Positions 12,723 to 53,400 of a stretch of 64,000 nt of DNA are shown in pieces. How positions within the stretch are numbered: position 1 is the first letter of the stretch; the number at the start of each line of letters is the position of its first letter. The DNA comes from Cyanidioschyzon merolae (taxonomy: Eukaryota): NCBI GenBank assembly GCA_000091205.1, contig AP006489.2. One strand, written 5' to 3'. The notes below the pieces were generated by a model, which searched no databases, was not told the origin of the DNA, and was given only the letters and a program-made list of their open reading frames with translations. A program made the position numbers and the translations under genes.

Positions 12723-12867
12723 CGGTCCCCGTCTCTATACTTTGACTCGCCTTGCCTGAGAGCACTTTGGGCGGAATCGGAGGTGCAGCCTCTCCAAGCG
12801 ATATGCGCCAGACATCGTACTCGAGGCCGTCGTTGCCGCCGCCAGCGCCACCGCCAGCGTCTTCATA

Positions 12868-13863: not shown

Positions 13864-14030
13864 CACGAGGAAAACTGCATATCGACAGATTTGGTCTGTA
13901 TTTTACCACCGCTTGGCAACGATCCATCAACGCGATGGTATAGTCGCGCACAATACGAGGAAAACTGCATATCGACAGATTTGGTCTGTATTTTACCACC
14001 GCTTGGCAACGATCCATCAACGCAATCATA
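13864..14030. repeat. Tandem repeat, ~93-bp unit x 2 (acgaggaaaactgcatatcgacagatttggtctgtattttaccaccgcttggcaacgatccatcaacgc)
   Basis: Two near-identical adjacent copies visible in the sequence. The peptide NTRKTAYRQIWSVFYHRLATIHQR is duplicated in track ORFs 13805..14086 and 13534..14031. Confidence 0.8.
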
Positions 14031-22805: not shown

Positions 22806-24093
22806 ATGGCTCTTGTTGGCATTGCTTGCACTGAACGGAAGCATGCTGTGCTGCACAGATGGGAATCGAATTGGACCTAAACTGGATGATGAGGTTGCTT
22901 TTCATCGCAAGTACGCAGCGTTTCAGCACAATATCTACACGGTGTACGATACAGCAGTCTCGTATGTTTGCTAGATACAGAGGCGCTGGACGCTGCGGAA
23001 GCACGAGAAAGTTCTGGATGCTGATCGAGTCGTTCAAGTCTGTGACGAAACGCGTAATGCCTGCGCGCAAGGTTGCAGATGGAGTCACACTGTAGCGGGC
23101 CGCCAGCCTCTGCATAGCGTGCTGTGTGATGCTCAGTCGACTGCTGGGGCATCATTTCATGGGGACAATGCTGTTTCTGGCACAGCCTGTCTAGGTATTT
23201 CAGCGTGCATCTGAGCACGTGATGCCTATATTTCGTCCTAAAGGCGTCGACAGGCACTGTAGGCAGTCGGATCATTTACGAGCGCGCTATGCGCCCGCCG
23301 AAGGGGCATCAGTACAGCCTTTATACGCTGCCGCATGTGCAGTGTCATAGGCTGGGGCGCAAACAATCGCGGCTATCGGGTCAGTGCCAGTTTCAACTCA
23401 TCTAAGAACACAACGGATGCCTGCTTCTTGTCCGCGTGCAACCGATATTGCTGGCGGCACTAGCGTCATCTCATGGACGCTTGCCAAAGACCGGGCACAG
23501 GAGCCGTGTGTGGACGCTCACATACGCTTGACAGGAAACGCTCTGTTCTGGATCAAGTGGAAGCGCAGGGTACAACGAAGAAAGTCATTCCGTTGCGACC
23601 TTCCTTTGTGTGCCATGTTCATCCGTACGATCGTATGCCAAGCGCCATGATGCGTTTGGACGCTCTGAAGCGATTCTCGCTTTCGTTGCGATATCGCTTC
23701 CGCCATAACCAGCTCGTCATTTGTCTCCAACGACACAGTGAGAATTCCTTCCGCCGTTTCCTGCTATGATCGACGAGCGAGGTTACGGTATAATGCCCGT
23801 ATCGTTTGCCGCATGAAGCGCTCGGTATCGACCCGCATCTTGTTGCCGAGCCCTAATGGATCCTCTGTGACAACCTGCACGGTGGATGTTCTAAACGCCG
23901 ATGTGGTGCGGTAACGTGTCAAGGTATTCTGGGAAGCGCATGTGTGCACTGTTAATTCTACGATCATCCGTTGTGATGTCGCATAAAGGGTTTGATCGAA
24001 AACTTCCGGAAGCATGTGAACAGCTGGCAACGAAACGAGCGGAAACCCTGCGAATGTCTTCGTAACGAGGTACGTCAAATCGAAATAAATTAG
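22783..24093. repeat. Right arm of the ~1.3-kb inverted repeat (partner 9105..10406)
   Basis: See the left-arm entry. The reverse-complement match begins at tgtatattcggcggtacatggctc (22783) and runs to ~24093. Confidence 0.9.
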
Positions 24094-28850: not shown

Positions 28851-29789
28851 TCACTTTTTGCCGCTGATATCGTTAACTTTTGTTTTCCCCGAGCTCGATC
28901 CGCTTTTGGATGGCCCGACTTGCACGGATGCCGGCCGACTCGTTGCGAGAATCGATAGGAACATGTTATAAGCAATTTGAATTGAGTTGATGTAAAGAAG
29001 GCGCTGACTCGGTGGAACGAAGCGAAAGTTAATGGCGTGCGCAACGGGCCAGACCGACCACGAGGCGCGAACTCCCGTGAACGTATCTGCCTTGATTTTC
29101 TTCACGGTTTCCTCAGTCGATGCACCGCTCAGCAAGCTTGTGTATCCCAGGAAAATTGCGGTGAATATGGGCGCCCACAGCAGCTGGTCAAGTGCAACTT
29201 TGGAGACCACTTCCCGCACGCCGGTTCCCTTGATCATCTGATCCAGAAATTGGTACCAATAATGGCCCGTTGATCCGTGAATGAGGAATCCAAACGACAT
29301 CATGCGGAAAAGGCGCTTCTTATCCAGTTTCTGCTTATCTAAAAAGTGCTGCGCTAGCACGTCGCCTAACCCGAAACCAACTAGAGACGTGAACATCTTC
29401 GTCAAAAGCGGCCGCTTAGCCAGGTTTTGGAGGTAGAGCGCCCACAGGGCAGCGAGCGGGTTCGGTCGACCCGACGCGCCGCCACCACCTCCGCCACCAC
29501 CACCACCACCTCCGCCACCACCACCGCTGCCGCTGCGACTACCACCGCTACCTCCCGTTCCTCCGTACGCAGGAGCCGCAGTACCCTCAGGCGGAACAGC
29601 GAAGCAGGCGCGCATCCGACGCTGCATCGGGGCGCCCTGCGCGCTCGCGCCGAGCGGTCGCCGGTGCCCCTGCGCCGGCACCCTGCGCCCCACAGAGCAA
29701 CGAAGAGGTGTCGTGTGCACAACCCCGCACGTCCTCGCGGAACGCCCAGGTACCTGCAGCAAACCCGACACAAAACATACGTCAATCAT
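28851..29789 (-). CDS. Mpv17/PMP22-family membrane protein; the N-terminus is probably over-extended (poly-Gly tract encoded by (GGN)n)
   Basis: LWALYLQNLAKRPLLTKMFTSLVGFGLGDVLAQ aligns with the Mpv17 N-terminus (LWRAYQ…GLGDIISQ). The C-terminal WPVAHAINFRFVPPSQRLLYINSIQIAYNMFLS is the family's conserved block. The poly-G run is encoded at ~29455-29550. Confidence 0.75.
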   Translation of the reverse strand: MIDVCFVSGLLQVPGRSARTCGVVHTTPLRCSVGRRVPAQGHRRPLGASAQGAPMQRRMRACFAVPPEGTAAPAYGGTGGSGGSRSGSGGGGGGGGGGGGGGGGASGRPNPLAALWALYLQNLAKRPLLTKMFTSLVGFGLGDVLAQHFLDKQKLDKKRLFRMMSFGFLIHGSTGHYWYQFLDQMIKGTGVREVVSKVALDQLLWAPIFTAIFLGYTSLLSGASTEETVKKIKADTFTGVRASWSVWPVAHAINFRFVPPSQRLLYINSIQIAYNMFLSILATSRPASVQVGPSKSGSSSGKTKVNDISGKK

Positions 29790-31078
29790 TTAAAAGACTC
29801 GCTTCGGTTGTGGAAAGATGGATCCGCACACAAGTTCGCGCACGAAACCGCTGCCGCTCACTACCGTTACCGGCTGACTCAAGCGACACCACAGCGCGTA
29901 CGCTCGTGCAAAGCGCGCCGGCGATTCGAGCGAGCGTTACGCGCAGTCATCGAAGCGCAGCTGGCGCTGCCGGTGTCTGTCGATGATGATCACGGAGGTG
30001 CGCGCGCACCAGCGAGATCGTCGAATGCACGCCACGTTGCATCGTGTGTGTGCGCGCGCGATCTGAAGCAGCAGGCGTGCAACAGTGCCTTGAGTGTGCG
30101 TGTACGTGTGCGTGTGCGCCTGCTGCTGGCACGGTATGCTGGAACGGATGCGTTGGCGAGCGTGCCTTTGTTGTGGTACGCGTTCGCTGGAGCGAGTGCC
30201 CGCTATTCGGGAAGCACTGTGATGCTCGTGGCGGTATTTCCATGAGGTAGGTGTCGGGAGCGGATACGAGTCTAGCCGTACGATCAACTTGCAGAGCGTT
30301 GGGTACTGTCCAGTGCATCCTGGGAGCGGTACTGGGTGATGCGGAATCGAGGCCACCACCGATACGCGAGCGCCAGTATCTCGTTGGGCGGCACGCGGGC
30401 GTTGGTCGGTGTCAGCGCGCGGTTCATAGGGTGCAACTGGGCAGACGGGCGGGTGCGGCGGCGGTCCCTATGCGTTCGTATGTAGGCTATCGTTTGACTC
30501 CAGGTGGCTCTGTTTCGGACGGCGTTTGTCGGGGACTTCAGCGCACCTGCTCGTAATTTTCGCTGAAGATCGTCATGGGAACGACTTCGAGTGGGTACGT
30601 TCCGCTCGCAGAGAATGGGGGTTTTCTGAAACCCGACTGAGCACCTCACACTGCAACTGCGATTCTTGAGTTCCTGTTGATCTGGATGGTTTCCAGTTGG
30701 AAATCAATACGGGGGACTCTTGTTGCCAAATTGACAGTGGCGGCTGATAGACAAGACCTGCAGAGTGGATTCTACCGGGCCTTCGATTCCCGTTCGGGAT
30801 TCCGCGCTGCATGCGAATACCCGGAGGCGACGACGTGACCGCCGCCTGGTATGAGCCTGGTGTGACCCAGGCCATAAAGTCATCTGTTTGTGATGCCCAT
30901 GCAGCATGCGATTCAAGGCGCTGTCATGGCGCCCGCTGCCTACTACCGTCCCGAGTCGGATACGCACCAATCTGAGATCACTGGAGTGCAGTGGCTGCCT
31001 CCGCGATATTCACGCGTGTGCTTTACGAACCATCCTTTTCGGATGTGCGAGCGCACGATCGGCTGCACTGGAAAGCGA

Positions 31079-31328
31079 TATTGTGTAACCACCGCAAGGA
31101 AGCCGCCCTTGTTAAACGCAATGCGATGCTGAATACGACTGTCGATTTCGCGATCAAGCCAATATTGTGTAACCACCGCTAGGAAGCCGACCCTGTTAAA
31201 AGCGATACCACACAGAATATGACTGTCGATTTCGCGATCAGGCCAATATTGTGTAACCACCGCAAGGAAGCCGACCCTGTTAAAAGCGATACCACACAGA
31301 ATACGACTGTCGATTTCGCGATCATGCC
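31079..31328. repeat. Tandem repeat, 84-bp unit x 3 (atattgtgtaaccaccgcaaggaagccgaccctgttaaaagcgataccacacagaatacgactgtcgatttcgcgatca…)
   Basis: Unit starts at 31079, 31163 and 31247. Track ORF 30943..31449(-) shows the repeated peptide DREIDS(R/H)ILCGIAFNRVGFLAVVTQYW. Confidence 0.85.
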
Positions 31329-32492
31329 ATTCGTAGTGCCATGCTCGGACTCTAGTGTGTAGCACTGTACTGCGCAAGGATCGGGGTGATCTCTTCCATA
31401 TATCTACACATGACATCGTATGAAGCTGGTGCTTGTTCCGACGCACCACATCTACATGGATATATAAACAAGGACGGCGTCATGTTTTCCGAGGTCGAGT
31501 GCGCTCGGTGAAAGAGGAGAGCATGTTCCCTTCAGGTTCCACACTGATTGACATCTGTGTCTCCCACATGCATACGCCAGTATTTGAAAATCTAGAGAGC
31601 GCACCAGTATCGTGCCAGGATGGTGTGTGCCTCTGAAACGGCGAAAGCCGCGCAGTGCCATGCAGCTGGCAGTACCATCTGGACACTGCGGACACAGGTG
31701 GCCGCGCACCGTCTTTTCCCGAGAGCGCATCCCATGATGCGCCACGGACGCGGGAAATCGCAGGTCGTGTCACGGAAACAGCAGATTCCGTGACGCCGGC
31801 GATGAACAGCGCATGCGCGCATCACGTATCTAGGCCGCAGCGCGCGACGTGGTGCGCGGCAGATGTGTATGTATGTGTCATTATTTCCCTGAAGCAGGAC
31901 GCTGCACCCGCGATGCGCTTCTAACGACGCATCTGATTTTATTGAGACGATGCGGTAAACACGATATCGGTTAGCACTCGTGTGCCTGCACCGGACCTCT
32001 TGGACGGTGAGAATCTCGGGAACTGGTTATCCCGAAGAAATCGAAGCCAGCCGCGTCGACGAAGCGTTGCCGGAGGAGCTCGGGCGACATAGTCGTATTC
32101 GTCCTGTCACCGAAAATCACACGTATAACAGCTTGATAATCTAGAGCACGACACTGATTGGGTGTGTCGATGTGGCGTAAACGGTTGCTCAGCTCAGGCA
32201 CGTCGGGCCGATACTGCCGACCAAGACACCTGAGCGATCTGGTGTCCCGCGCAAGCTGGTGCCGGACGCACGCAACATTCGGAGAGAGTCGGCAGTTCCC
32301 TTTCGGTGCTGAGTTTGCGTCTGCGACCACTCGATTAGTATACGAAACGCACACCTGCCGTTTACAACCATTGTAGAGCTTGCCGTTCCGGACTTGTGCC
32401 CGAACCTTCATGTTTCCTGATGGCGCACTATCTATGCTGTAGTTCGCCTGCATTCAAAGAATTCAGCTTTCCATGGAGCCTCCTTTGCGTTT

Positions 32493-33068
32493 TCAGTATG
32501 CGCAAATGCTCCCTGTGTTCTGAATGTACACGATGATGCCAATCTCGTCCGTGCTCTCGCCGTTGATAGACCAGCGGTTGCCAACTATACGCCATGCAAT
32601 AGTTCCCACGAAGCAGTCTGCATTTATCTCCGCCACTGCTGCATCATCGACTTGGTAGAGATATCCATCGGAGTTGGCCTGAAACGGTTCATCGGTAACA
32701 GTAACATCATTGATAATGCAGCATTCACCGAAGCATAACGTGTTTCCCTCGAAGTAATCACCGTTAACCATGCGAACCGTGATGTACGACGGGCAAGATT
32801 CGCTGTTGACACTGTAGTCATTTTCGAGGTCACTGGTGTACCACTGAGCTTCATAGAGACCGTCCTCGCAACTGGAATAGAAATACGAGCCACTATCGCA
32901 CAGGTTACTTGGGCTGCAGGAGGAACAGTCCGTTTGAATACTGTTCTCTATCGTGCCGGTATCTGTATAGCACTCATAATAACAAGTCTGCCCCGAAACG
33001 GGTTCCTGCATAAAAGACAAGACAAACACGAGCGTCAAAAACACGAAAAGAGCACGCTTGCAAGACAT
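32493..33068 (-). CDS. Small secreted cysteine-rich protein, paralog A (signal peptide + ~165-aa mature region with ~12 Cys)
   Basis: MSCKRALFVFLTLVFVLSFMQEPVSG|QTC… is a classic n/h/c signal peptide. The mature part is Cys-rich and ends …GSICAY. It is the only convincing gene inside the duplicated unit. Confidence 0.6.
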   Translation of the reverse strand: MSCKRALFVFLTLVFVLSFMQEPVSGQTCYYECYTDTGTIENSIQTDCSSCSPSNLCDSGSYFYSSCEDGLYEAQWYTSDLENDYSVNSESCPSYITVRMVNGDYFEGNTLCFGECCIINDVTVTDEPFQANSDGYLYQVDDAAVAEINADCFVGTIAWRIVGNRWSINGESTDEIGIIVYIQNTGSICAY

Positions 33069-33132
33069 AAGGTTGGCGCTTTCGAGCAGAGTCTATAGCT
33101 TTTACTTCAACAACAAGCGACGCAGTTACGTA

Positions 33133-33217
33133 CTATGTGACTGTCACGCTGCGCGACACGCACACCGAGATGCAGCCGTGTCACGCTGCGCGACACGCAC
33201 ACCGAGATGCAGCCGCG
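33133..33217. repeat. 42-bp x 2 tandem motif (tgtcacgctgcgcgacacgcacaccgagatgcagccg) in the 5' flank of secreted-protein gene A; the same feature occurs at 40612..40696 upstream of gene B
   Basis: Direct duplication visible in the sequence; conserved between both segmental copies. Confidence 0.8.
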
Positions 33218-35688
33218 TCACGCCACCTGTGCATGGTGCACACGGATGCGCTCACAACGCCCCCAACGGATAGGAGATCTCCCAACGACGTGCGTTGTAT
33301 GAGAGCCGCCGCCGCCGCCGCCGAGCTTCACACGAGCGCATGACGTATCTGCGCGTCGTGTTCGCGCTTTGCGTATCTGGGCGCTGTCGTTGCGCTCGCG
33401 AGCGGCGGCGTCGTTTACTGGCGGGCAGCGCTGGTGTATTCGCGGTACGCGGTGCTGTATGTTGTACGCGAGCGCTGAGGAATCGGAAAGGTGGTATAAG
33501 TGTACCGAGTGGTCTGGGTGGCCATTGGGCACGCTCAGGGCGTCGTTGTTGACAGCAGGGATCCTGTTTCGCTGCTCGGTAGAGCTAAGAACGACTCAAA
33601 CAGAAGGAGTTCGCATAGCGACCGAGGGCGGAAACGGCAAACTTTGAACCTATTCTAGCTGCTATCGATAGCAGGCTTTGCGGACTTTCTCGGAGACTGT
33701 TTCCTTTTCCGCTCTTTTTTTTCTGCAAGTTTGACTGGGCTTGTTTCTCGTGTCTATCTTGCACTGTTGCTGTGAGCTGTTGAAGGATGTACACAACAGC
33801 GGTATAGCTCCGACCTCGCTGCCTCTGGTTGCTTTTCACGCTTCTCATATGCAGTATTTCGTTGCAACCTACGCTCCTGTTGCCTTTTTCATGAACTTTG
33901 GTGGCAGGAACGATGCGCCTTTTGCAGCGGTGTCACCTGGCAATGCTCGGATGTTGCAGCAGGTCTGGTGCACCTGCTGCAGCGCGGGCTCGCCCTGCAG
34001 CCCACGAAGGCTTGTCGCACCGCTCGGTACATGCCCGTGCGGGCCAGGGAAGGGTCGCGCGATGGTCTCCCCAGTTTCCACACCGGGTGCCGTATCCTAC
34101 GTTCACGGGCTACTGCATGGCGACTGTATTGGCAAGTAGGCCGTCGGCCGGAGAATCAAGCGGAGGCTGTTCCATTCTGTCGAAGATTTGCGGGACGAAA
34201 CTTCGTCTATGGTGAAACCAGCACCGGGAAGGAACCCCAGGCTGAAGCACAAATCGAGATATTTCGATCCGTATGCGCTCGCCTGGGGCAGTTCGGTGGA
34301 GCGTTTCCACAGGGAGCTGTGGTAGCCACGAGACGAACTCGTATCCAAGATCTTTTTTTTACGCGCAAACAGAAGAGACCCGAGTCTCCGGGAGCATATC
34401 CGTGCGAAATATGATGATGCTACTGTTGCGTGCCGTTTTGCAAACCGCCACAGAGAGACGCACACCTTTCGAACAGATAGAATTACTAGCCGTGACAGGT
34501 TCAATGAACTTTTATGTTTGAGCTTGTGGAGAAATCGAGAAAGGACGGCGCCCAGTTTATCCATGGTCATTGCAACAGAAGGCATTGTTGCGCCTTCGCA
34601 ATACCTTGGCCCAGGGAGTTTGGAAACATGAACCATGCGTGATATGCGCACGCTGCTTCGGAGGAAAGGAGACAAGCCGAGGCTCCTGCGTATCCACTGG
34701 ACCATGAAATAGAGTCTTTTGAAAGGCCTCGTATAAGAGCATCCCGAATCATGAAGAATCCGATGGTGTACCAAATTCTAGCGGCAAGGCGTTGAATAAA
34801 CCACTTCGAACATTCGACCCAGAATCCTAAAACTACGAATACGTCGGAACGTTCGTACTGGCGCACTTTGAGTCTCAAGTCTGCGGGTCAAAAAACAGTC
34901 CGAGAACCTCGAAGACCAGGAACAAAAGCGCGCAGTTATGTGGTTCTTTTCAGTCTGCCATGAGTCGAGGGCGAGCGACTGAGCGCGAACGCTCAAGGCA
35001 GTACCGCCCCAAAGTCGTATTCTTCCTCGCTATACGCGGAATCTCTGGGGCGTAGTGAGCCGAAAAAATACAGAAAAAACAAAACAAACTAGTTGCAAAA
35101 TATTGATTAAAGAACACCTATCTTATGGACCTACACACCACGGCCGCCTAAGAGGTTCCAATTTTCCTGGAGAAGCTCTGAAAGTGGGTTAACACGGGGT
35201 GCTTGGACGACGGCGATAGAAGACCACGACAGGAACCTTGACCGCAACGAACGGAGAGGCGGAGGCAGTAGCATCACAAAGTATTGACGAAAATGCTGAG
35301 CAGACATTCGCACCTCCCGAAACAACGCTGCAGGTGCGGGCACATATTCTGGATCCATCCTCGAACTCGGACTCAGGATTACCTCCTACCATGGGTACCT
35401 ACCTCGACTTTGGAAACAGTCTCGGCGGATACTTTGGAAGACGGCTGGCGGCATGTTCACGGTCGAAACTGGAGTAAGCGACTTGCCCGCGTATGTGTTT
35501 GGGGAGCGGATACGTAGCTGCTGAAAGGGTGTTTTGCAGACTGTTCCCAATGGTTGCGGGTAGCTTCACGCGTCCGGCAAGATAAAGTTTGCATTCGAAT
35601 CGACCAAGACTAATGTACTTCTGTTGCTAACTTCGCGCTGTGCCAAGCACTCAATGGACGACTGGAATGCAGGAAGCGCTGGTGGCGT

Positions 35689-38600
35689 GTGCGTTCACAC
35701 ACCCCGTGGAGCGTGCGTCTAAATCGACGACGTATCTCTGGAGCACCGCAGCGCCATTCCTATTTCCTTATGCGCTATGACTCGATAGGTTTCGCATCAT
35801 GGAATATTTGTGAGATAGCCCCGATACTAGACGACGAGAAGTCGAATTACCAGTACAGTAATGAGGAACTGATACAAATCGAGGACTCTACCTTAGCGAT
35901 AGAGACCCAACGAGATACGGAGAAGGAGGTACAGAGCCATCATGATCCAACCAGAAGCAAAATAACCAGAGAAAGTAGCTCAGGACAGAGCCCGAAGAAG
36001 AAGACCAGCAAGAGAAAACAAGAGAATAGAAAGAAGAACTCCGAAACGAGCCCATCACAAGTCATCCCCGGAAAGAACACCCCAGCCGGAACTCAAGAAA
36101 GCTGTCAAAAAACTCAGTCACCTACTCACAACGCGGTAGATCCGAAAAGCCGTGCATGCAAATCATTAGACCAACCGGGACGGCTGGCACCAGAACGTAA
36201 AAGTTGCAATCCGCAGTACCTGAAACGACGTACCAATACCCAGATTGATGAATGCCACCGACTCTATCAGATCGTCAACCGCACCGCCTTACGCGCCAAC
36301 GCCGGAGACAAGGAAGCGAAGGCAGTCCTAACGGCGCTACAGGCGCAACGTGAAGAAGCTATCAAAAGAAAGAAGAAACTTTCCAGAGAAGACAAACGAG
36401 AGGATCGAAGCCGCAAAATCGCCTCCCTGGCGAAATCTATGCTGGAGAGCACCACCGAAGATGAGACTTGGCGCTCCATTCGATCGAGACTGGAGCCACC
36501 AAAAAAGTGCTTGGGGCTCACACCAATCGTTGATAAGGAAGAGCTGAGGACGGAGGGTGCCTCAGTGAATGAGGCCTGGACAGACCACGGGACAGAGCTG
36601 CATGAAGACGCAACTGGGCACTGCCAAGACCCAATCTATCGGCACCAATATGCCGCAGAAGTACCGCGCATCGAACCGGTACTTGGAATGGAACGACCCA
36701 ATCTTCTGGCCTGAAATCGCTGAGACACTCTTAAGCTCATGCAACCGCAAAACACCTGGCATCGACGGTATCGCTGCCGAGTGGGTGAAACTGGCGACAC
36801 CAGAAGGCGAGACAACAGGGACACCATGGATACCAGATGAACCTGACACAAGCTTAGGCAAACGCTTTCTGGAGCTCATCCAACGCATGTTTGAAGAGGC
36901 ATACATCCCTGATGTATGGGGGACTGCCGAGGTCGTACCGGTCCTCAAAAAAGACTCCCACACAGACATGAACAGCTACCGGCCTATTCGCCTCATCCCG
37001 TCAATCATGAAGCTACTTTGCGCCATCCTCACGAACCGTATCCACAGCGGCCTCCAGGAGCGCAAGTTCTTCGCCCCAGAACAGGCTGGATTCCGGAGCC
37101 GCGAGGAGTGCATGAGCCATGCCCTGACCTTCATTGAAGTGGTGCAACGTCGCTTCACTAGCGACCAACAACCAACTTACGTATGCTTCATCGACTTCCA
37201 AAAGGCCTCGGACACGGTCCCGCACGAGGCTCTATTTCTGAAGATGGAACGTGCCGGAGTCTCCGAAAAGTGCTTAGCGTTCTTCCGTGCGCTCTATGTA
37301 GACTCATGGATGCGCATCCGACTGGGCGACGGCTCAAGAACCCCTTCGATAAGAATGCGCCGTGGACTGCGACAGGGCGATCCCGCATTCCCGCTCCTTT
37401 TCAACATCTTCATCAACGACCTGCTGAACAACTGCAGACAATACGTGCTTGAGGTGCCGTGGATAGACTGGGGAGATGCCCGATGAGGAGCCCTCATGTA
37501 GGAACCGCCTCGCAGGCCTTCTATTTGCGGACGATGTCGTGCTGTTGGTACCCGCCCCGGAAACGCTTGCGGGTAGCATGGAACAAGTCAGCGACTGGGC
37601 CGATCGCTGGGAGATAAGCATAGGAGCATCGAAGTGCGGCGTCATGGTCATTCATGGAGACTCGCAGAGCATTCGCAATCGCTCGTGGCGGTTGCAGAAT
37701 CAGGAAATTCCGATCGTGGAAAAATATCGCTACCTGGGGGGTCTGTCGCACATCGACGCTCGACGAAAAGGCACACGTCGACGAGATGATCGCCAAGATG
37801 CATAGACGTACAGCGATCGCACGCCCATTCTTATCCGACCCCTCTACCTGCATAGCAATCCGTACCAGCGCACTAAGGATGTGTATCATCCAGCCTGCGA
37901 CCTGGGGTGCTGAATGGTGCGGCATGAAGCACCCAAATGCCTCGCGTCTGCAGGCAGCCGCCAACAGGGCAATGCGACTCGTTGTTGTTGGGTGCTCAGT
38001 ACAGAGCAGAGCAACCACCGCGCTGGCACTCGGACTTGAACTCCAAATACCCTCGACAGAGGCGATAGCAGCAGGCTGCCGGGCATGTATACGGGCGAAG
38101 GGCTCCACTATGCGCACCTCTTTGAGTCGGATTTTCATGCAGACCCCAACGCACCGCAAGAACTCTTGGATGAAATCGACGCAGATTTGGCTGAAGCGCC
38201 TCTTGGGCGAAAACACGCTCCCCAATCTTTCCCCCAGGGATATAGAAGGCTCCCGCCGCCTCAAGCGAACGGTCCAAACACCAATATGGGATCGTAGACA
38301 CGGAACAAGTCGCGCCGGTAACGCCGGCTTTACTCTATACCGGAACTACACCCTAGCATACACATGCAAGTACTGGCGGGAGGCGCTGGAATTCCCGGGA
38401 CTTGCTCGAGGTACCCAGTGGCTCGCCAAAATGCGCGTTGGTGGCTTCTGGCTAGCAGCACCGGCTCTAAGCCGTATAGGAACACTGGAATCGCACTGGG
38501 AATCACACTGTCCCTGCTGTGGAAACGAGACCCCCGAGACGCTGACACATTTAGGCCTACAGTGGCCGCGCTGGAAACAGGAGCGCAGCGAGCTCCTTGA

Positions 38601-39298
38601 AGGACAGCAGCAGCTGGGCATCACCGTGATAGACGAAGGTCGGACACTCACTCTGAGTGTAGCACTGGCAATTGATGGTCCGCTAACCGAGCCTCAGCGC
38701 TCATTAGTGGCCAAAAAACTCACATGCTACCTTGTAGGTAAAAGGTCCAGCGAATCGGATGCGCATACGGGCGCAGTGCGCTTTCTGCGCCTACCTTCTG
38801 TGGTGGGTGTCAAGCACAAACCCGCATTGCCAACCAAGAACGCATTCCGTGCATGATCACGAGGAAGAGAGGCGGCTCCCAGAATTCATCCTAACAGCCA
38901 AGTTTCTCCAGCGTGTCGTGTAGCGAAGGCAGGCCTGCATCCGCAGACTGCCCGAGCGCAAACTGACGACGAGACCCGATTCTACGTCGGGTGAACCACG
39001 CCTCGAGCCGACGCCCTCTGAGGTATAGGAAAGCTGTTCTAGCTCTATGAACTATCTGCTCCAGCGGTTCAGGTGCCAAGGCGGATACGGAACGGCAGGC
39101 ACTCGGAACACACGATAGGACATATGAGGCGACAAGAATATCCGAGATGAAACATGGGTAATGTAATTTGAGAGTATGGTGTTGATGGACACCTCTCCTC
39201 GCACTGAAAAAAAAACACACAAAACAAGTAAGAAAAGAAAAATGCGCATAATCGGGGAACGCTGGCCTAAGAAAACGTTTTATCAATGAAAAAAAAAT
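35689..39298 (+). mobile_element. Non-LTR (LINE-like) retrotransposon, degenerate. It has a basic/coiled ORF1-like region (35689..36714), an RT-bearing ORF2 split by at least 2 frameshifts (36569..37486 / 37476..37805 / 37654..38856), and a 3' UTR ending in an A-rich tail (~39195..39298)
   Basis: RT motifs FIDFQKASDTVPHEALFLKMERAGV, MRRGLRQGDPAFPLLFNIFINDL and LLFADDVVLLVPAPE (FADD). The C-terminal motif CPCCGNETPETLTHLGL is the C..CG..ET.E..H zinc-knuckle-like block common to LINE ORF2 tails. The A-runs gaaaaaaaaacacacaaaacaag…caatgaaaaaaaaa end exactly where duplicate copy B begins. I recognise no APE endonuclease domain. The 5' boundary is uncertain and may lie 35.05-35.7 kb. Confidence 0.8.
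36569..38856 (+). pseudogene. LINE ORF2 (reverse transcriptase + C-terminal Cys/His motif) disrupted by frameshifts
   Basis: The RT domain continues across three different reading frames in the ORF track (305-aa, 109-aa and 400-aa pieces) with overlapping ends. Confidence 0.75.
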
Positions 39299-42200
39299 GC
39301 GCATCACGTATCTAGGCCGCAGCGCGCGATGTGGTGCGCGGCAGATGTGTATGTATGTGTCATTATTTCCCTGAAGCAGGACGCTGCACCCGCGATGCGC
39401 TTCTAACGACGCATCTGATTTTATTGAGACGATGCGGTAAACACGATATCGGTTAGCACTCGTGTGCCTGCACCGGACCTCTTGGACGGTGAGAATCTCG
39501 GGAACTGGTTATCCCGAAGAAATCGAAGCCAGCCGCGTCGACGAAGCGTTGCCGGATGAGCTCGGGCGACATAGTCGTATTCGTCCTGTCACCGAAAATC
39601 ACACGTATAACAGCTTGATAATCTAGAGCACGACACTGATTGGGTGTGTCGATGTGGCGTAAACGGTTGCTCAGCTCAGGCACGTCGGGCCGAGACTGCC
39701 GACCAAGACACCTGAGCGGTCTGGTGTCCCGCGCAAGCTGGTGCCGGACGCACGCAACATTCGGAGAGAGTCGGCAGTTCCCTTTCGGTGCTGAGTTTGC
39801 GTCAGCGACCACTCGATTAGTATACGAAACGCACACCTGCCGTTTACAACCATTGTAGAGCTTGCCGTTCCGGACTTGTGCCCGAACCTTCATGTTTCCT
39901 GATGGCGCACTATCTATGCTGTAGTTCGCCTGCATTCAAAGAACTCAGCTTTCCATGGAGCCTCCCTTGCGTTTTCAGTATGCGCAAATGCTTCCCGTGT
40001 GCGGAATGTACACGATGACGCCAAATGCGTCCGTGCTCTCGCCGTTGATAGACCAGTTTCTGGCATTTGCAGCCCATGCAATAGTTCCCACGAAGCAGTC
40101 TGCATTTATCTTCGCCACACCTGCATAATCGACTTTGTACAGATGCCCATCGGATTTGGCCCGATACGGTTCATACTTAACAGCAACATCATTGGCACTG
40201 CAGCATTCGTCGAAGCATATCGTGTTGGCCTCGAGGTAATGATAGTTAACCAAGCGAAACGTAATGTAGGACGGGCAAGGAACGCTCTTGACACTGTAGT
40301 CTACATCCAGAAAACTGGTGTACCACTGAGCGTCAAAAGTGCCGTCCTTGCAATTGGAAAAGAAGCTCAAGTCTCTGCAGAGGTGACTTGGACTGCAGGA
40401 GGAACAGTCCGTATGAATAGTTTTCTCAATCGTGCGGTTTTCTGTATAGCACAGATAGGAACAAGTCTGCCCCGAAACGGGTTCCTGCATAAAAGACAAG
40501 ACAAACACGAGCGTCAAAAACACGAAAAGAGCACGCTTGCAAGACATAAGGTTGGCGCTTTCGAGCAGAGCCTATAGCTTTTACTTCAACAACAAGCGAC
40601 GCAGTTACGTACTATGTGACTGTCACGCTGCGCGACACGCACACCGAGATGCAGCCGTGTCACGCTGCGCGACACGCACACCGAGATGCAGCCGTGTCAC
40701 GCCACCTGTGCATGGTGCACACGGATGCGCTCACAACGCCCCCAACGGATAGGAGATCTCCCAACGACGTGCGTTGTATGAGAGCCGCCGCCGCCGCCGA
40801 GCTTCACACGAGCGCATGACGTATCTGCGCGTCGTGTTCGCGCTTTGCGTATCTGGGCGCTGTCGTTGCGCTCGCGAGCGGCGGCGTCGTTTACTGGCGG
40901 GCAGCGTTGCTGTATTCGCGGTACGCGGTGCTGTATGTTGTACGCGAGCGCTGAGGAATCGGAAAGGTGGTATAAGTGTACCGAGTGGTCTGGGTGGCCA
41001 TTGGGCACGCTCAGGGCGTCGTTGTTGACAGCAGGGATCCTGTTTCGCTGCTCGGTAGAGCCAAGAACGACTCAAACAGAAGGAGTTCGCATAGCGACCG
41101 AGGGCGGAAACGGCAAACTTTGAACCTGTTCTCGCTGCTATCGATAGCAGGCTTTGCGGACTTTCTCGGAGACTGTTTCCTTTTCCGCTCTTTTTTTCTG
41201 CAAGTTTGACTGGGCTTGTTTCTCGTGTCTATCTTGCACTGTTGCTGTGAGCTGTTGAAGGATGTACTCAACAGCGGTATAGCTCCGACCTCGCTGCCTC
41301 TGGTTGCTTTTCACGCTTCTCATATGCAGTATTTCGTTGCAACCTACGCTCCTGTTGCCTTTTTCATGAACTTTGGTGGCAGGAACGATGCGCCTTTTGC
41401 AGCGGTGTCACCTGGCAATGCTCGGATGTTGCAGCAGGTCTGGTGCACCTGCTGCAGCGCGGGCTCGCCCTGCAGCCCACGAAGGCTTGTCGCACCGCTC
41501 GGTACATGCCCGTGCGGGCCAGGGAAGGGTCGCGCGATGGTCTCCCCAGTTTCCACACCGGGTGCCGTATCCTACGTTCACGGGCTACTGCATGGCGACT
41601 GTATTGGCAAGTAGGCCGTCGGCCGGAGAATCAAGCGGAGGCTGTTCCATTCTGTCGAAGATTTGCGGGACGAAACTTCGTCTATGGTGAAACCAGCACC
41701 GGGAAGGAACCCCAGGCTGAAGCACAAATCGAGATATTTCGATCCGTATGCGCTCGCCTGGGGCAGTTCGGTGGAGCGTTTCCACAGGGAGCTGTGGTAG
41801 CCACGAGACGAACTCGTATCCAAGATCTTTTTTTTACGCGCAAACAGAAGAGACCCGAGTCTCCGGGAGCATATCCGTGCGAAATATGATGATGCTACTG
41901 TTGCGTGCCGTTTTGCAAACCGCCACAGAGAGACGCACACCTTTCGAACAGATAGAATTACTAGCCGTGACAGGTTCAATGAACTTTTATGTTTGAGCTT
42001 GTGGAGAAATCGAGAAAGGACGGCGCCCAGTTTATCCATGGTCATTGCAACAGAAGGCATTGTTGCGCCTTCGCAATACCTTGGCCCAGGGAGTTTGGAA
42101 ACATGAACCATGCGTGATATGCGCACGCTGCTTCGGAGGAAAGGAGACAAGCCGAGGCTCCTGCGTATCCACTGGACCATGAAATAGAGTCTTTTGAAAG

Positions 42201-42525
42201 GCCTCGTATAAGAGCATCCCGAATCATGAAGAATCCGATGGTGTACCAAATTCTAGCGGCAAGGCGTTGAATAAACCACTTCGAACATTCGACCCAGAAT
42301 CCTAAAACTACGAATACGTCGGAACGTTCGTACTGGCGGACTTTTAGTCTCAAGTCTGCAGGTCAAAAAACAGTCCGAGAACCTCGAAGACCAGGAACAA
42401 AAGCGCGCAGTTATGTGGTTCTTTTCAGTCTGCCATGAGTCGAGGGCGAGCGACTGAGCGCGCGCGCTCATAGCAGTACCCCCCAGCACCATATCCTTCC
42501 TTGCTATACGCGGCATCTTTGGGGC
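39299..42525. repeat. Copy B of the ~3.2-kb direct segmental duplication
   Basis: See copy A. It begins at gcgcatcacgtatctaggccgcag immediately after the LINE A-tail. Similarity to copy A fades at ~42525. Confidence 0.9.
39975..40547 (-). CDS. Small secreted cysteine-rich protein, paralog B. The signal peptide is identical to paralog A, while the mature region has diverged (~60% aa identity) on a conserved Cys scaffold
   Basis: MSCKRALFVFLTLVFVLSFMQEPVSGQTCSYLCYTEN…GSICAY. Cys positions are conserved relative to paralog A and intervening residues are largely replaced. Confidence 0.6.
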   Translation of the reverse strand: MSCKRALFVFLTLVFVLSFMQEPVSGQTCSYLCYTENRTIEKTIHTDCSSCSPSHLCRDLSFFSNCKDGTFDAQWYTSFLDVDYSVKSVPCPSYITFRLVNYHYLEANTICFDECCSANDVAVKYEPYRAKSDGHLYKVDYAGVAKINADCFVGTIAWAANARNWSINGESTDAFGVIVYIPHTGSICAY

Positions 42526-43870
42526 GTGTCTGCGCAAACAATCATGTAGACGAGCGCCCCGCCAGGACACTCGTTCAGGGCGCTGCCTCTACCACCGTGC
42601 ACATCCTGTGCGAGTCCGACAAACGCACGCCGTCTCACTACGGAGCAAACCTAACCACCCACACACTCATTCGCTCTGGTATCCACGCACCGATTGTCGA
42701 TAGCATGGTCATCGAGCGCCCCGCGAACATGCGTCAGGACGCCCGGACATCCTTGCACGGAGCCGGTAACCTTCTTGCCAGACTCGCGTCTCACCAGTGC
42801 TCGGAATCGCTCCAGAGAAACACCAGAGGCAACATAACCGTAATGTGTGCCAGATTATGCGATGAAGCTGCTGTCGATACCAGTATTCTGGCAGCGGTGA
42901 TTCTTGCGCTGATTTCATACGACGGACGTGCTCCCATTGCCACGTTCGCCGTGTCATGATGTTATCAGTTACCGAGCAGGTAGTTGCGCACTCATTCAAC
43001 TCAGCTAGCGTCCCGATGCCCTGCAAAACACGAGTCACGTTGCTTATCGTCTGTCGATCGAGCAAGTTGGAGACACGAGTGAGGCTCGTCCTATGCGCAT
43101 GGATGCGGTATTCGAAGCAAGCTGCACCTTTTGATGTTTTACGCGATGCATCATGGTGTGCTTTGTTCTCACGGCGACACAGGAATCAAGTTGACCAACA
43201 GGCGTTGCCATCGCAAGGCTCAGCAAGACGCAAACATATGGTCGCTCTCGCAAGTACAGCTCGCGTGCGGGTTGCTGTCTTCGTCTAGCGATACTTGTGC
43301 CGGGTAAGCGGGAGTGTGCCAGTCGTGCATGTGCAACGACAGCAAAGAAAGCGTTGAAGATCAGCGCGACACGTTGGCTGTTGATACCAACGCTCTCGCG
43401 TGCCCGTTGTTCGACGTGCACCGCCTAAGCAAGGCGTACCTTGGGCACACACACGTAGCTCGACACCGCGCACATTGAAGGACCAGTTTGTCGCCAGCTC
43501 GAGCCCAGTACCTAGAACGCGCTTCTTGTGCAACGTATCACAGAGCTAGTTCTCCGGCAGCGCAACGTGCTAGTAGCCAGTCACGTGCAAAATTCCCAGC
43601 TACAAAACTGGCTCCGCGCGTTGACGACAAGCTCCAAGCGCCCAGGCAGAGTCGCTTTGGCTCCCAGCTTGGCGCCCGTTGCTCCAGCACCGCACTTGAC
43701 CGAACAAGGTCTTCACGCGCTACGCTCACTTCTGTGTACCGGTCACGATTGCCGCGCGTACTTGGTGACTCCAGGTACAGCGTTTCTCGTGCAACGCCCA
43801 CAACTTGCGGCAAGTGAAGCTTCGTTATGAGACAGTCGCGAACGACAACCGTCAAATGATGCACCAATAA

Positions 43871-43990
43871 CAGCACAAGCAGTAGCACAAGCAGCAGCAC
43901 AAGCAGCAGCACAAGCAGCAGCACAAGCAGCAGCACAAGCAGCAGCACGAGCAGCAGCACAAGCAGCAGCACAAGCAGCAGCACAAGCAG
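43871..43990. repeat. 12-bp microsatellite (agcacaagcagc)n x ~10, ~100 bp upstream of the TRAF-type zinc-finger gene
   Basis: Direct read of the sequence. The track ORFs 43538..44020 (LLLVLLLV…) and 43743..44138 (AACAAAC…) are translations of this array. Confidence 0.9.
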
Positions 43991-44094: not shown

Positions 44095-44781
44095 TTGACT
44101 GAATACCAACCTCCTTGGCTCGTTCTCGTATGGCTCATGTCCCTTACTGCAGCAGAGAATAGTGGTGCTCGAGTTGTTGATACCGAGCCGAATGAGGTTG
44201 AGGCTCGTCGTTGCCAGGTCTGTGGGCACCAGGTGCCGCTCTCTAACTGGACACTTCACGAAGTTCGCTGCGCCCGTGGTGCCTGTACCTGTGAGCACTG
44301 CGGCTCCCGGATGCACGAATCAGAACTGGACGCACACTGGAAGACCGAGTGTCCCTGCACCTTAGTGGATTGCGTGTACTGTGAGCTACCGGTCAAGAGG
44401 AGCGACATGGAAGGCCACGTGCGCCGCTGTGGCGCACGTACCGAACGCTGTAAGGCCTGCGGCGACTACATTCGTTTAATTGATCGGCTTGAGCACGAGT
44501 TGTATATCTGCTCGGCGTCAAGAGCGCATAACGGTGAAAGCGATGCGTCGCACCCTGCGAAGGAGTCTGTCCACGCGTGCGCAGCCTCGCTCCCGGAGAG
44601 CGCCCCGGACACGGTGACTTCGACAACCCCAGCCAGGCGACCGCAGACAGCGCGAGGGCGCTCGGGAGTACCCTCCAGAAAGCTCTCCGCAAGCAAACCT
44701 TGGCTGCTAACCATGGGAGCAATTCTCGCCGTTGTCGTTTTGCAGGGTCTCCGGAGCCGTGAGCGACGCCCCGCTCCATAG
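44095..44781 (+). CDS. TRAF-type zinc-finger protein with a C-terminal transmembrane anchor
   Basis: The Cys/His-rich core CQVCGHQVPLSNWTLHEVRC…CEHCGSRMHESELDAHWKTECPC…CVYCELPVKRSDMEGHVRRCG…CKACGDYI fits TRAF-type/XAF1-like zinc fingers. The C-terminal hydrophobic segment WLLTMGAILAVVVLQGL is the anchor. Confidence 0.6.
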   Translation: MTEYQPPWLVLVWLMSLTAAENSGARVVDTEPNEVEARRCQVCGHQVPLSNWTLHEVRCARGACTCEHCGSRMHESELDAHWKTECPCTLVDCVYCELPVKRSDMEGHVRRCGARTERCKACGDYIRLIDRLEHELYICSASRAHNGESDASHPAKESVHACAASLPESAPDTVTSTTPARRPQTARGRSGVPSRKLSASKPWLLTMGAILAVVVLQGLRSRERRPAP

Positions 44782-50436: not shown

Positions 50437-53400
50437 CCACCACTCTGTCTATGTGTATATGCCCGCTAGAGCCTGCAATGAAGAGCCAGGTTTAAGTTCC
50501 TCAGGTATCCCACGGCTTATCTGAGAACCATTCTGCATGCAGCGTACTTCTGAGTCCTCAGCTGCGTCACCAGCTGTGTAGCGCAGCACTTGGTGGATGC
50601 TCGTGCTGACGGCAGACGCAGGCCCCCCTGCGGACACCCGGGGATTCGTTGCGATCGACTCATCGGGGACATACCCCGAGCGGGTGGATGGGCGCTCTCC
50701 AGCTGGGTAGTTATCCACCCTGAGGTGCGTTTCATGAAATGCTTTTACGTGGCCTATAGCAGATGCTTGTGAAGTGGGTTCGTTGGAAGAAATAAAAATG
50801 TATGGGAAAGGTATGGATGTGGAAGCTGGCGGACTAGAGAGTCGTCATCGCTGGCTACCGACAAACTCAAAGCGAACAATCCTCTTCTCATTGAGCATCG
50901 AGCGAGGAGGAGCGAGTGACGAATAAAAGCAGAAGAGGGGAAATAGTCGAGATATCGTGTTTAACCGATGGGAGTATGATGAGACTTTAGGGGTAGAGCG
51001 GGCACGAGTTCCAGTTATTCATGCATCGGTGCTAGCGAAAATACACACATGGAGTTCTTGAATCGATACTTGAACGCCGCCTTCAATATCATACGATGTG
51101 CGGCGCTGAAGACGAGAACCGAGGAGCTGACGCGAGCCAATTTTGTGGGGAAGCCTCTCAGGCTCGAAGCGTGCAGGGAAAATCTGAAACAGACAGCAGT
51201 GGGCAAGTCAAAAATTGCTTGGAGCGTGTCTTTGAGTCCATACATATAAATGTACATACGTAGGTATCCTCCATGGTAGCAAAGCTCTTTCTATTCCACT
51301 GATCACGTACATACAGAGGGCGGGGAGTCGAAGGTTCTGCATGTTGCCTCCTTGAGACGCTGCCGATTCGACATACTTGGTGCTTCGTTGGGATGCGTCC
51401 ATTTTAGGTAAAGATTTTTTTTTTGATCTGTAGCAGAGCGGCAAACGAGTCTTTTCAGATACTGCGAGATGCACGAGTGCAGCTGCGAATGAGACCAGAC
51501 GCCGTAAGTTTTGCAAGCGTGTTCAATGCTGAATACTGCCATGCAACATCGATGAATCGCCCAGCACGTGGCGACGCTGGATCGAGTCCCTACATAGCAT
51601 AGAGTAGCTAGTCTGGATAAAGGAGCTTGGGATGGTGCGCGAATGCGTTCCCGTCGTTGACCTTGCAGCCTGTAGCGCCCGCATACATGGCGCGAGCCCA
51701 GAATATTTATCAAGTCAAATGCGCCGTGGTTCGTTGGTCTTTCGTCGTCAGTTCGAGGTGCCCTGGATGCCCTTTGGAGAACGAATTTTCTGAAGTTCGC
51801 TTCTTCCTGGCTGTCTGGCTGGGTGCACCAGGGCCATTGTGCGACAGGTTCGTGGCAAACAACACGTCAACAGATGCGTGCGTCTTGTAGGGATGGTGCC
51901 GTCGCATCCAGGCCTCCCGCCGGGGCGCTGAGCAAACTTCACGCGACTCCAGCACGGCTTCGCCATCCAGCCGGCTCCGTCAATCACGTGGCGGACGCTG
52001 GGCTCCAGCACAGCGAAGCTGGATCACGTCCCGTACGTTTCGGGAGTCGCCAGCAGCCCCCGATCATTGAACTGGGAAACATTCACAAATAAAATACCTC
52101 CTTGTCGTTGATGCCAAGACGCGCTGGATTTCCCCAGGCTACCTGATGGCCTTCTCAACTGTGCTCGGTATCTGGTATCGAGCGCCCACAAACATGGGCA
52201 GTCGCACCAGCGACTCAACTCCACATCCAGTCACGCGAAGCCTGTCACTGCGAGATCCCCGATCAACGCCCTGTATAGCCAGCCCCGGGCACCGTGCCCC
52301 GACTTGCACCAGCGCGTCCATCTGTTGTCCATAGTGAGTCCAGCGAGCGATCAACCACGCAAATCGGCGACTCGAGAACGGACACGTAGCAGCGATCGCA
52401 CCGTGCGACTCCAGGTGCTGCGTACGCATGCCCGCCGCCACAGCACGGATGACGGCGAGTTTTTTTTCATGGACAAAACGTTTACCTAGCCAGCGTTCTC
52501 CGATTATGCACATTTCTCTTTCCTTTTGGTTTTTTTTCAGTGCACGGTGAGGTATCCATCAAGCCCCTACTCCCATGTTACATGACCTGCACTTCATCTC
52601 GAATATTCTGGTCGTATCATAAGTCCTATCGTGTGTGCCTAGTGCCTGCCGAAAGCGACAGCAATGGCGCCTGTAGCGCCGGGGCGGTCGCAGCACGGAG
52701 ACAGAACGGCGTTGCCGTACCACAAAGGGCGTCGGCTCGAGGGGATACCGGCGAGTACGCACGCATTTGCGGCCGGTGGTGCGAGTCGTTGCGAGCCGCT
52801 TCCGCCGCCATCGGATACAGCAGCGCAGGCGTCCGTTTTGTTTTCTGATCCTGCAGCATCGATGTATCCGAGAGACTGGGCGTATGCAGCGGAAACGCGC
52901 ATACCACTATCAGCTCGAACAGAGACAGCAATTCGCCTGCACGGATACGCCTTAGATTCCACCAGGTCCAGTCTACTGTCTCCCGCGAACGCACCCAGTG
53001 AATACTGCGAGCCTCTAGACTCGGGGCCTGCAGCGGGCGCTCTCGCTGTGGCGCCGTGTGCGCATCGAGCGTGCCATGGCGGCTTCTGTGCGCCGCTGCG
53101 GGCGTTCGCCCTGCAAGGCGGCGCACTGTCCAACTGAATGGCGCGTCGCTGCTCGGCTCGCTGGCTCCTGTGTGGGGCTCTGTTCCGCAACGGCTTTGTA
53201 CTCTGTGGGTGCAGTTGAGACGGCGTACTCTCGGGGAGCGGGTTGCTCACTGGTACGCAGGACCAATTGAGGTGCAAGATAAATCATTTCAAGCTCTCAC
53301 AGTTACTGTTACGCTGATTCTACACAGCATCTGTGACATAATTTGGTACTGTTGGAACTCGGGTGTTGTTTACACTCGACTCGGGTGGCGCATTGTCACC

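Follow-up and report, generated by a model that had tools for sequence, protein, structure and literature searches.

Organization of the duplicated locus

The 64,000-nt window analyzed here, on a 584,452-bp chromosome of Cyanidioschyzon merolae 10D, contains a single long direct repeat (31817-35053 versus 39299-42527; 96.0% identity over 3,240 columns in a BLASTN comparison of the window with itself), and its two units, A and B, each code for a cysteine-rich protein with a signal peptide and are separated by a retroelement without long terminal repeats (non-LTR) (Table 1). The 3.2-kb copies had been described as near-identical in an earlier note made from the letters alone, and self-BLASTN and MAFFT alignment confirm this and set their limits. 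Unit A runs on at its left end into single-copy flank, as seen in contig L022, and meets the retroelement at its right end. The units are ~99% identical outside a ~500-bp block coding for the mature protein, and nearly all of the differences fall within this diverged core. L022 and the other environmental contigs referred to below are short-read assemblies, some of them apparently from Lemonade Creek, Yellowstone (YNP), to judge from their Joint Genome Institute (JGI) sample series; 10D was isolated in Italy (PMC13353863).

Between the units there are 7 differences in the 676 nt of downstream flank (31817-32492) and 13 events in the 1,919 nt of upstream flank (33069-34987), the latter including a perfectly identical tract of 1,070 nt (33794-34863). 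The near-identity claimed for the flanks thus holds for the bulk of both 5' and 3' sequence and fails in the 66 nt that adjoin the retroelement at the end of unit A, where 14 differences are clustered. About 10 of these 14 are specific to 10D unit A, and environmental contig L025, which covers the same junction, is B-like save at the last three sites, where it is A-like. The cluster may stem from error-prone repair tied to the junction, or it may be a remnant left unconverted. Divergence is otherwise confined to the mature region, as had been proposed, with 0 differences in the 78 nt of signal-peptide codons 1 to 26 and ~1% in the flanks.

Table 1. Features of the duplicated locus, the intervening retroelement, and the neighboring genes (positions in the window; aa, amino acids; CDS, coding sequence; ORF, open reading frame; UTR, untranslated region; LINE, long interspersed nuclear element; TRF, Tandem Repeats Finder)
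Feature	Position	Strand	Size	Basis or remark
Unit A	31817-35053		3,237 nt	Self-BLASTN and MAFFT
Unit B	39299-42527		3,229 nt	First base directly past the retroelement A-run
Copy A CDS	32493-33068	-	191 aa	ORF; most probably CMX046C of the 2026 re-annotation
Copy B CDS	39975-40547	-	190 aa	ORF; apparently absent even from annotation v2.0
Copy A signal-peptide codons 1-26	32991-33068	-		MSCKRALFVFLTLVFVLSFMQEPVSG, then QTC; n, h, and c regions and V-x-G at -3/-1 read from sequence
Copy B signal-peptide codons 1-26	40470-40547	-		Identical to copy A
Diverged core, copy A	32484-32980	-		Mature codons 30-191 and 9 nt of 3' UTR
Diverged core, copy B	39966-40459	-		Counterpart of the copy A core (MAFFT)
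Putative transcription start, copy A	33098-33103	-		Equivalent to 40577-40582 in copy B
Tandem repeat upstream of copy A	33142-33223	-	37 nt x 2.2	TRF; ~40-120 nt upstream of the putative transcript start; candidate cis-regulatory
Same repeat upstream of copy B	40621-40702			TRF
Edge cluster, unit A	34988-35053		66 nt	14 differences; adjoins the retroelement 5' junction
Spacer, non-LTR retroelement CMG208C	35054-39297	+	~4.2 kb	RVT_1 (PF00078), E 1.4e-18
LINE ORF with RVT_1	36569-37486	+	305 codons
LINE flanking ORF	35689-36714	+	341 codons
LINE flanking ORF	37654-38856	+	400 codons
LINE A-run	39289-39297	+
CMG206C	28851-29789			PMP22-like neighbor
CMG210C	44095-44781			Zinc-finger gene ORF, neighbor

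Both cysteine-rich ORFs are protein-coding genes under coding constraint, because retention of the frame and of the Cys residues exceeds chance. The proteins are 70% identical at full length, and over the mature part 395/495 nt (80%) and 108/165 residues (65%) are identical, with the same percentages over codons 30 to 184, matching the ~500 bp and ~80% nucleotide identity in the earlier note and revising its ~60% for amino acids upward. There is one indel of 3 nt, which is in-frame, and all 13 Cys residues, 12 of them in the mature part, are aligned and kept, as had been stated. When 97 random substitutions are placed in the mature region by simulation, the probability of acquiring no stop codon is 0.02 and that of keeping all 12 Cys is 0.0007, and an open frame together with all Cys is obtained in 0/20,000 trials. 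These simulations and the SignalP-positive CMX046C entry discussed below agree with the original reading of a gene pair for a secreted Cys-rich protein.

This is also the sole convincing gene of the unit, as first thought: a TBLASTX comparison of the flanks with orthologous intergenic regions gives 0 matches that would mark further conserved coding sequence. A 160-aa ORF at 31971-32453, called by metagenome gene finders, was rejected as spurious; it has neither a signal peptide nor homologues and lies in 3' UTR or read-through. Upstream of each gene, the promoter motif first described as 42 bp x 2 is resolved by TRF as a 37-nt period with 2.2 copies. The repeat is partly palindromic (TGTCACGCTGCGCGACA), its copy number is lower in some environmental contigs (L008), and it is a candidate for a regulatory element specific to the life-cycle phase. 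The first base of six contigs, each from a different sample, falls at 33098-33103, and that of the B-type contig L028 at the equivalent position 40582; if these samples are metatranscriptomes, the contig starts fit a transcript start ~35 nt upstream of the ATG.

Annotation and expression of the cysteine-rich genes

The exact copy A protein is present in at least 13 environmental contigs, and the exact copy B protein is likewise present in environmental contigs. Neither ORF is found in NCBI, UniRef, or EukProt, so both were overlooked by the 2007 annotation. A 2026 re-annotation adds 219 genes (PMC13353863), one of which, CMX046C, is placed between CMG206C and CMG208C and described as "hypothetical protein, SP(Sec/SPI)," being SignalP-positive with 0 transmembrane segments by Phobius (PMC13353863, Data Set S8). 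The same data set labels CMG208C "retroelement" (BAM79701), and its correspondence to the window is anchored by ORFs that match exactly BAM79695, BAM79698, BAM79699, and BAM79705, which are CMG200C, CMG203C, CMG205C, and CMG213C in the supplement (PMC13353863). Copy A is the only ORF with a signal peptide in the CMX046C interval and is for this reason most probably CMX046C, going by gene order and sequence features. Copy B is apparently unannotated, since Data Set S8 has no row between CMG208C and CMG210C. CMX046C appears in PMC13353863 only as a table row and an orthogroup member, and neither a twin gene nor mosaic divergence is discussed there.

Expression of CMX046C is strongly phase dependent. 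Transcripts per million (TPM) are 1728/1858/1237 in the cell-walled diploid MS1 2n, 1.9/2.7/2.3 in MS1 Ha3 n, and 36/33/56 in 10D n, and the log fold change (logFC) of 2n versus n in Cz. merolae is 9.7 (PMC13353863, Data Set S8). The gene that is most probably copy A is therefore expressed, at 1,200-1,900 TPM in the diploid versus ~2 in a haploid, and its secretion, also proposed in the earlier note, is backed by classical secretory features: n, h, and c regions and a VSG|Q cleavage site can be read from the copy A sequence, and the Sec/SPI call for CMX046C is that of PMC13353863. Copy B has both UTRs in common with CMX046C, so the published TPM may mix two genes, and RNA sequencing (RNA-seq) quantification of CMX046C is likely confounded by its unannotated twin.

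These data bear on whether the ORFs are instead chance frames or decaying pseudogenes in repeated intergenic DNA. Their absence from the 2007 reference annotation and a ratio of nonsynonymous to synonymous divergence (dN/dS) near 1, with codon positions equally affected, would suit such sequences, but frame and Cys retention go far beyond chance, the one indel is in-frame, syntenic orthologues with ~31% identity and the same Cys framework occur in two other taxa, and CMX046C (most probably copy A) is highly and phase-specifically expressed with a SignalP-predicted signal peptide. Such an origin has a negligible probability and is refuted for practical purposes.

A fast-evolving family in Cyanidioschyzon and Cyanidiococcus

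Searches of 5.8 billion clustered proteins and of 1.84 billion representatives recover, besides the two copies, only two relatives: a protein from a JGI contig of 85 kb (P0058/L016, 32% identity) and Cyanidiococcus yangmingshanensis CCYA18G4452 (P0060/L024, ~30% identity). Both orthologues are single-copy and syntenic, lying between zinc-finger and PMP22-like genes without a retroelement. A 1,445-aa repeat protein (P0059, E 1e-4) was set aside as a spurious match due to low complexity or Cys content, and a metagenome scan with degenerate patterns returns just three loci, all already known. Judged from these sequences, the family appears specific to Cyanidioschyzonales and restricted to Cyanidioschyzon and Cyanidiococcus. 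The Cys framework is common to the orthologues, save that the Cyanidiococcus protein lacks two Cys that align to C112 and C117 of full-length copy A and perhaps form a disulfide pair. Neighboring genes are 64-71% identical to those of the same taxa and the Cys-rich protein only 30-32%, which marks it as intrinsically fast-evolving.

Neither protein matches a Pfam-A family by hmmscan at E <= 0.1 (elicitin, CFEM, hydrophobin, and defensin included), and a profile search of PDB sequences at E <= 1 gives 0 matches. AlphaFold2 (AF2) models the mature domain as all-beta (pLDDT 70, pTM 0.66), and no similar structure is found for this model in PDB or BFVD; as modeled, the ~165-aa domain with its 12 Cys would probably hold six disulfides. 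The mature proteins differ strongly in charge: copy A lacks both Lys and His (calculated charge +3.6 at pH 2) and copy B has 7 Lys and 5 His (+17.7 at pH 2), and there are two N-glycosylation sequons in B and none in A. Apart from its Cys residues and hydrophobic scaffold, the protein seems to be under weak constraint, and the charge of B has shifted in one direction. Among the orthologues, L016 is A-like in charge and the Cyanidiococcus protein B-like.

The "effector/toxin/defensin-like" label of the earlier note does not suit a 165-aa mature domain without Pfam, PDB, or fold match in what is most probably CMX046C, a diploid-phase secretory gene. In Cyanidiophyceae the diploid is the walled form, the wall is cited as 50-55% protein, and 35-50% of secretory-protein genes differ in expression between phases (PMC13353863); on these grounds the most likely place of action is the cell exterior, at pH 1-2, where the protein would be a component or accessory of the diploid wall or matrix.

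CMX046C belongs to orthogroup OG0001016 together with four adjacent genes of Cyanidiococcus NIES-4659, according to PMC13353863. In C. yangmingshanensis, a TRAF-type zinc-finger gene is duplicated on either side of the Cys-rich gene (8370-8921 and 13407-14051 of L024). Because of these zinc-finger duplicates and the four NIES-4659 Cys-rich paralogues, the locus seems prone to copy-number change in more than one lineage.

An old core within young flanks

Divergence in the core exceeds that of the flanks ~20- to 30-fold, and this includes the synonymous sites. By the Nei-Gojobori method (NG86), the mature region has pS of 0.215, pN of 0.193, dS of 0.25, and dN/dS of 0.88 (0.64 in the N-terminal and 1.22 in the C-terminal half), and the differences are spread over codon positions 1/2/3 as 32/32/33. 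A dS of ~0.25 beside flanks at ~0.01 is beyond the reach of selection on amino acids, and the core is therefore far older than its surroundings. A rough contrast of the McDonald-Kreitman (MK) type, with Dn/Ds of ~75/22 against Pn/Ps of 13/5, reveals no excess of replacement fixations. The core substitutions comprise 36 transitions and 61 transversions, with all base types involved.

In environmental contigs the cores occur as two discrete types, 87-92 of 92 diagnostic sites in each contig being of one type (14 A-type and 6 B-type contigs). In 10 environmental contigs the A-type CDS matches that of 10D at every nucleotide, and the A type is nearly monomorphic and the B type polymorphic. Exchange between the types is evident from mosaic proteins, since P0008 has A-type residues 30-32 in a B background and P0005 has Y136; contig L020 carries 5 A-type sites in a B core.

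The earlier note pointed to diversifying selection. One reading of this kind is a recent duplication followed by rapid diversification, or targeted hypermutation, of the mature peptide, as in toxin, defensin, or effector families. The contrast between a conserved signal peptide and a divergent mature region, the dN/dS of 1.22 in the C-terminal half, and the strong charge shift (0 Lys and 0 His in A versus 7 Lys and 5 His in B) are as expected for such selection. It does not account for core synonymous divergence of 0.21-0.25 against ~0.01 in the flanks, an overall dN/dS of 0.88, the even spread over codon positions, or a Pn/Ps close to Dn/Ds; each type is moreover almost invariant between 10D and environmental contigs, so that ongoing hypervariation is absent, and the mixture of transitions and transversions is not adenine-specific, so the process is unlike that of diversity-generating retroelements. 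Diversification after duplication is very improbable and is largely refuted by the synonymous divergence. The earlier note had itself held that dN/dS of no more than 1 with divergence spread evenly across synonymous sites would favor conversion from an older paralogue, and the values found favor import or retention of older sequence. A diversity-generating retroelement, suggested by an RT domain placed between two repeats that contain a variable coding block, was also considered and rejected, as the differences are not adenine-specific and are spread over 500 nt, and the reverse transcriptase (RT) belongs to a dispersed LINE family.

An older core could have been imported, overwriting one copy by ectopic conversion from a third paralogue, as the earlier note also suggested, or by introgression from another Cyanidioschyzon lineage. 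An old core within young flanks has the look of an imported tract, and a nearly monomorphic A type beside a polymorphic B type is as if one type came or spread recently. Against a third paralogue, TBLASTN finds none in the window, to which the DNA-level search was confined, and none is present in the 5.8 billion clustered proteins or the 1.84 billion representatives, which include gene calls on environmental C. merolae contigs. Import from such sources is improbable, and the core donor is more likely a diverged allele than a third paralogue.

A non-LTR retroelement at the junction of the units

The spacer has the features of a non-LTR element, namely, an RT domain, an A-rich 3' terminus, and dispersed 5'-truncated copies, and 26 non-LTR elements have been described in the genome (Nozaki 2007). 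The LINE ends at 39297 with TTATCAATG-A9, and unit B starts with the next bases. Its 3' end is confirmed by two copies, contig L027 and window positions ~52457-52742, that lose homology right after the A-run, and L026 is a 5'-truncated copy of the family. The window copy is a 3'-terminal fragment on the reverse strand, 77-80% identical, that ends in CCATG-A8 and lies between ferroportin and proline dehydrogenase genes.

The order at the junction is unit-LINE-A(n)-unit, with unit A running up to 35053 and the spacer directly following it. A short target-site duplication (TSD) of the ordinary kind is not found at the LINE junctions, and the 3.2-kb unit therefore acts in effect as the TSD. A LINE between direct copies, with its poly(A) at unit B, and a single unit in L022, L016, and L024 are the features of a LINE-bridged tandem duplication, with the reservations that L022 may be collapsed and that the 5' end is provisional. 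A comparable arrangement occurs in tumors, where a single L1 at the junction of a tandem duplication is documented as a result of aberrant retrotransposition and is explained by invasion of a second break, on a sister chromatid, by its cDNA (Rodriguez-Martin et al. 2020, PMC7058536). A 3'-transduction variant of the event may also apply, as an A-rich stretch follows 35053.

All three long ORFs of the LINE are open, for which the simulated probability is 0.065 at 2% neutral divergence and 0.001 at 5%, with 0/3,000 trials at 10%. Because these ORFs are open, the LINE and the duplication are dated to the same age as the ~1% divergence of the flanks and are much younger than the cores. The proposal in the earlier note that gene conversion homogenized the surroundings is accordingly possible, although it is not the best fit, since a retroelement at the junction with open ORFs implies a young duplication.

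Core types, flanks, and the origin of the locus

The joins between cores and flanks vary among environmental contigs. In L022 (46.8 kb) a single B-core unit lies between both outer flanks without a LINE; in L028 the copy A downstream flank follows a B core, and this contig starts where the A-type contig L007 does and ends at nearly the same place; in L008 and L009 an A core adjoins the LINE poly(A), and in L029 a B core adjoins the LINE 5' side. Among B-type contigs that extend past the downstream end of the unit, 0/2 join the LINE poly(A) side. Sites in the flanks that distinguish the 10D units do not track core type, and these single-nucleotide polymorphisms are shared polymorphisms and useless for assigning environmental contigs to unit A or B. 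The joins fit A and B as alternative alleles, with a LINE-bridged duplication on some haplotypes and with L022 and L028 compatible with a haplotype that has a lone B copy, and they also fit assembly path errors, conversion between paralogues, and unequal crossing-over.

Under concerted evolution of old tandem paralogues, the main model of the earlier note, the duplication would date from the time of the core divergence, repeated conversion would keep promoter, signal peptide, and 3' flank alike, and selection for two distinct mature proteins would reject conversions of the core. The sharp boundaries at functional landmarks, the mosaics at core edges (P0008, and L020 with its 5 A-type sites), the flank variants common to both core types, the joining of either outer flank to both cores, the long perfectly identical tract at 33794-34863, and the left-unit-specific differences at the extreme edge would all be expected, although allelic recombination or assembly artifacts explain the mosaic cores and shuffled flank variants equally well. 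Old paralogues do not predict a retroelement exactly at the unit junction with its poly(A) at unit B and no short TSD; a retroelement so placed without a TSD of its own was part of the duplication event. Three long open LINE ORFs are, furthermore, incompatible with ~10% neutral divergence per lineage (0/3,000), and the orthologues are single-copy in two relatives. Concerted evolution of old paralogues is nevertheless a serious rival and ranks second, if on the unlikely side, with the open LINE ORFs and the geometry of the junction counting most against it.

The explanation that fits best, to which we give an even chance of being correct, is a young LINE-mediated duplication whose units carry two core lineages, ancient and possibly allelic, of an extracellular protein of the diploid phase. 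The 3.2-kb duplication would have arisen together with the non-LTR retroelement, as a LINE-bridged tandem duplication or a giant TSD, giving the order [unit]-LINE-A(n)-[unit]. The cores would predate it as two old discrete lineages, most simply alleles of an ancestrally single-copy locus in a diploid sexual population. Their tandem position in 10D would go back either to a bridging event between two homologues or to a later stage at which the other allele took part in recombination or conversion. The sharp edges at the cleavage site and the stop codon would mark where recombination wiped out linked divergence up to a selected block.

Several points weigh against this explanation. The joins in L022, L028, L008/L009, and L029 cross 0.7-2 kb of near-identical repeat and may be assembly path errors or collapses, and core-flank linkage is unreliable across this repeat, so that A and B are no more than candidate alleles. 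The mosaics P0008 and P0005 show exchange between types, which fits conversion between paralogues as well, and the three left-unit-specific differences in the last 26 nt, common to 10D and L025, could have been left unconverted from an older duplication. No second copy supports the 5' end of the LINE, so some of the spacer may be other sequence. Equating CMX046C with 32493-33068 relies on gene order, signal peptide, and orthogroup rather than coordinates, and the cell-wall role is a prediction from the context of expression and secretion.

A stronger and rather doubtful version holds that A and B are ancient alleles of a diploid-phase surface or extracellular protein under balancing selection, present in 10D from Italy as well as in environmental contigs that appear to include Yellowstone, and both captured onto one chromosome in a single step by retroelement cDNA bridging the homologues of a heterozygous diploid. 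Interaction with viruses or microbes and self/non-self recognition in mats are possible drivers of such selection, and one-step capture would have left haploid 10D permanently "heterozygous." If the cores are old alleles, Cyanidiophyceae would gain in them a first candidate for long-term balancing selection, and they would offer a way to learn what the diploid wall interacts with.

Relation to known systems

The locus belongs to known kinds, fast-evolving secreted Cys-rich proteins and LINE-mediated duplications, and is not a new type of system. It is most similar in context to the diploid-phase secretory genes of Cyanidiophyceae, as CMX046C has a signal peptide and strong diploid-dominant expression; tandem copy-number change is also seen in these genes in some lineages (LOX and FAS1 in Cyanidium, and the CMX046C orthogroup in NIES-4659). 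Unlike them, the Cys-rich pair has no FAS1, LOX, or other Pfam domain and is limited to Cyanidioschyzon and Cyanidiococcus.

Conotoxins, beta-defensins, frog antimicrobial peptides, and fungal and oomycete effectors combine a conserved signal sequence with a hypervariable mature peptide of 10-60 aa. A and B resemble these superfamilies in their identical signal-peptide codons, invariant Cys framework, and fast-evolving mature region, but they differ in having a mature domain of 164-165 aa, no propeptide, and only two copies, and in a dN/dS that is not >1 with synonymous sites equally diverged. Expression of CMX046C, moreover, follows life-cycle phase, not a venom, immune, or infection context.

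The exons for the peptide-binding region of the major histocompatibility complex (MHC), compared with the introns, exemplify ancient balanced allelic lineages with homogenized flanks. A and B are likewise two old discrete classes with near-identical flanks, shared flank polymorphisms, and occasional edge recombinants, but both classes are on one 10D haplotype, only two are seen, and there is no replacement excess; the allelism of A and B is, in addition, presumptive. With the LINE-1-bridged duplications of human tumors (PMC7058536) the locus shares one non-LTR element at the junction, poly(A) at the downstream copy, and the lack of a short TSD. It differs from them in being germline and fixed in a strain of a unicellular alga, in its size (3.2 kb, not megabases), in an unrelated LINE family, and in two copies with different cores.

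C. merolae serves as a minimal model eukaryote with almost no redundancy, and only recently have its sexual cycle and its cell-walled diploid been described. Through this locus, what is most probably among the most strongly diploid-specific genes for secreted proteins gains a second copy, which is apparently unannotated. The locus also establishes an orphan family of Cys-rich proteins common to C. merolae and Cyanidiococcus and provides a clean natural example of retroelement-bridged gene duplication.

Other repeats in the window

The C. merolae genome is reputed to be repeat-poor, and the window contains several further repeats. A 1.3-kb inverted repeat (9108-10406 and 22789-24087; 98.9% identical, ~12.4 kb apart) encloses CMG200C-CMG203C; its first arm is without a convincing ORF, and a tandem array of 63 nt x 9 (22241-22807) adjoins its second arm. 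An 84-nt x 3 tandem repeat (31078-31329) just downstream of unit A is length-polymorphic, as environmental contig L006 has two extra copies. A 12-nt x 10 repeat (CAGCACAAGCAG) at 43871-43990, directly upstream or at the start of the CMG210C ORF, would encode an Ala/Gln-rich run if translated. Additional intergenic tandem arrays lie at 381-698 (147 nt x 2.2), 12866-13326 (116 nt x 4), and 13856-14023 (90 nt x 1.9).

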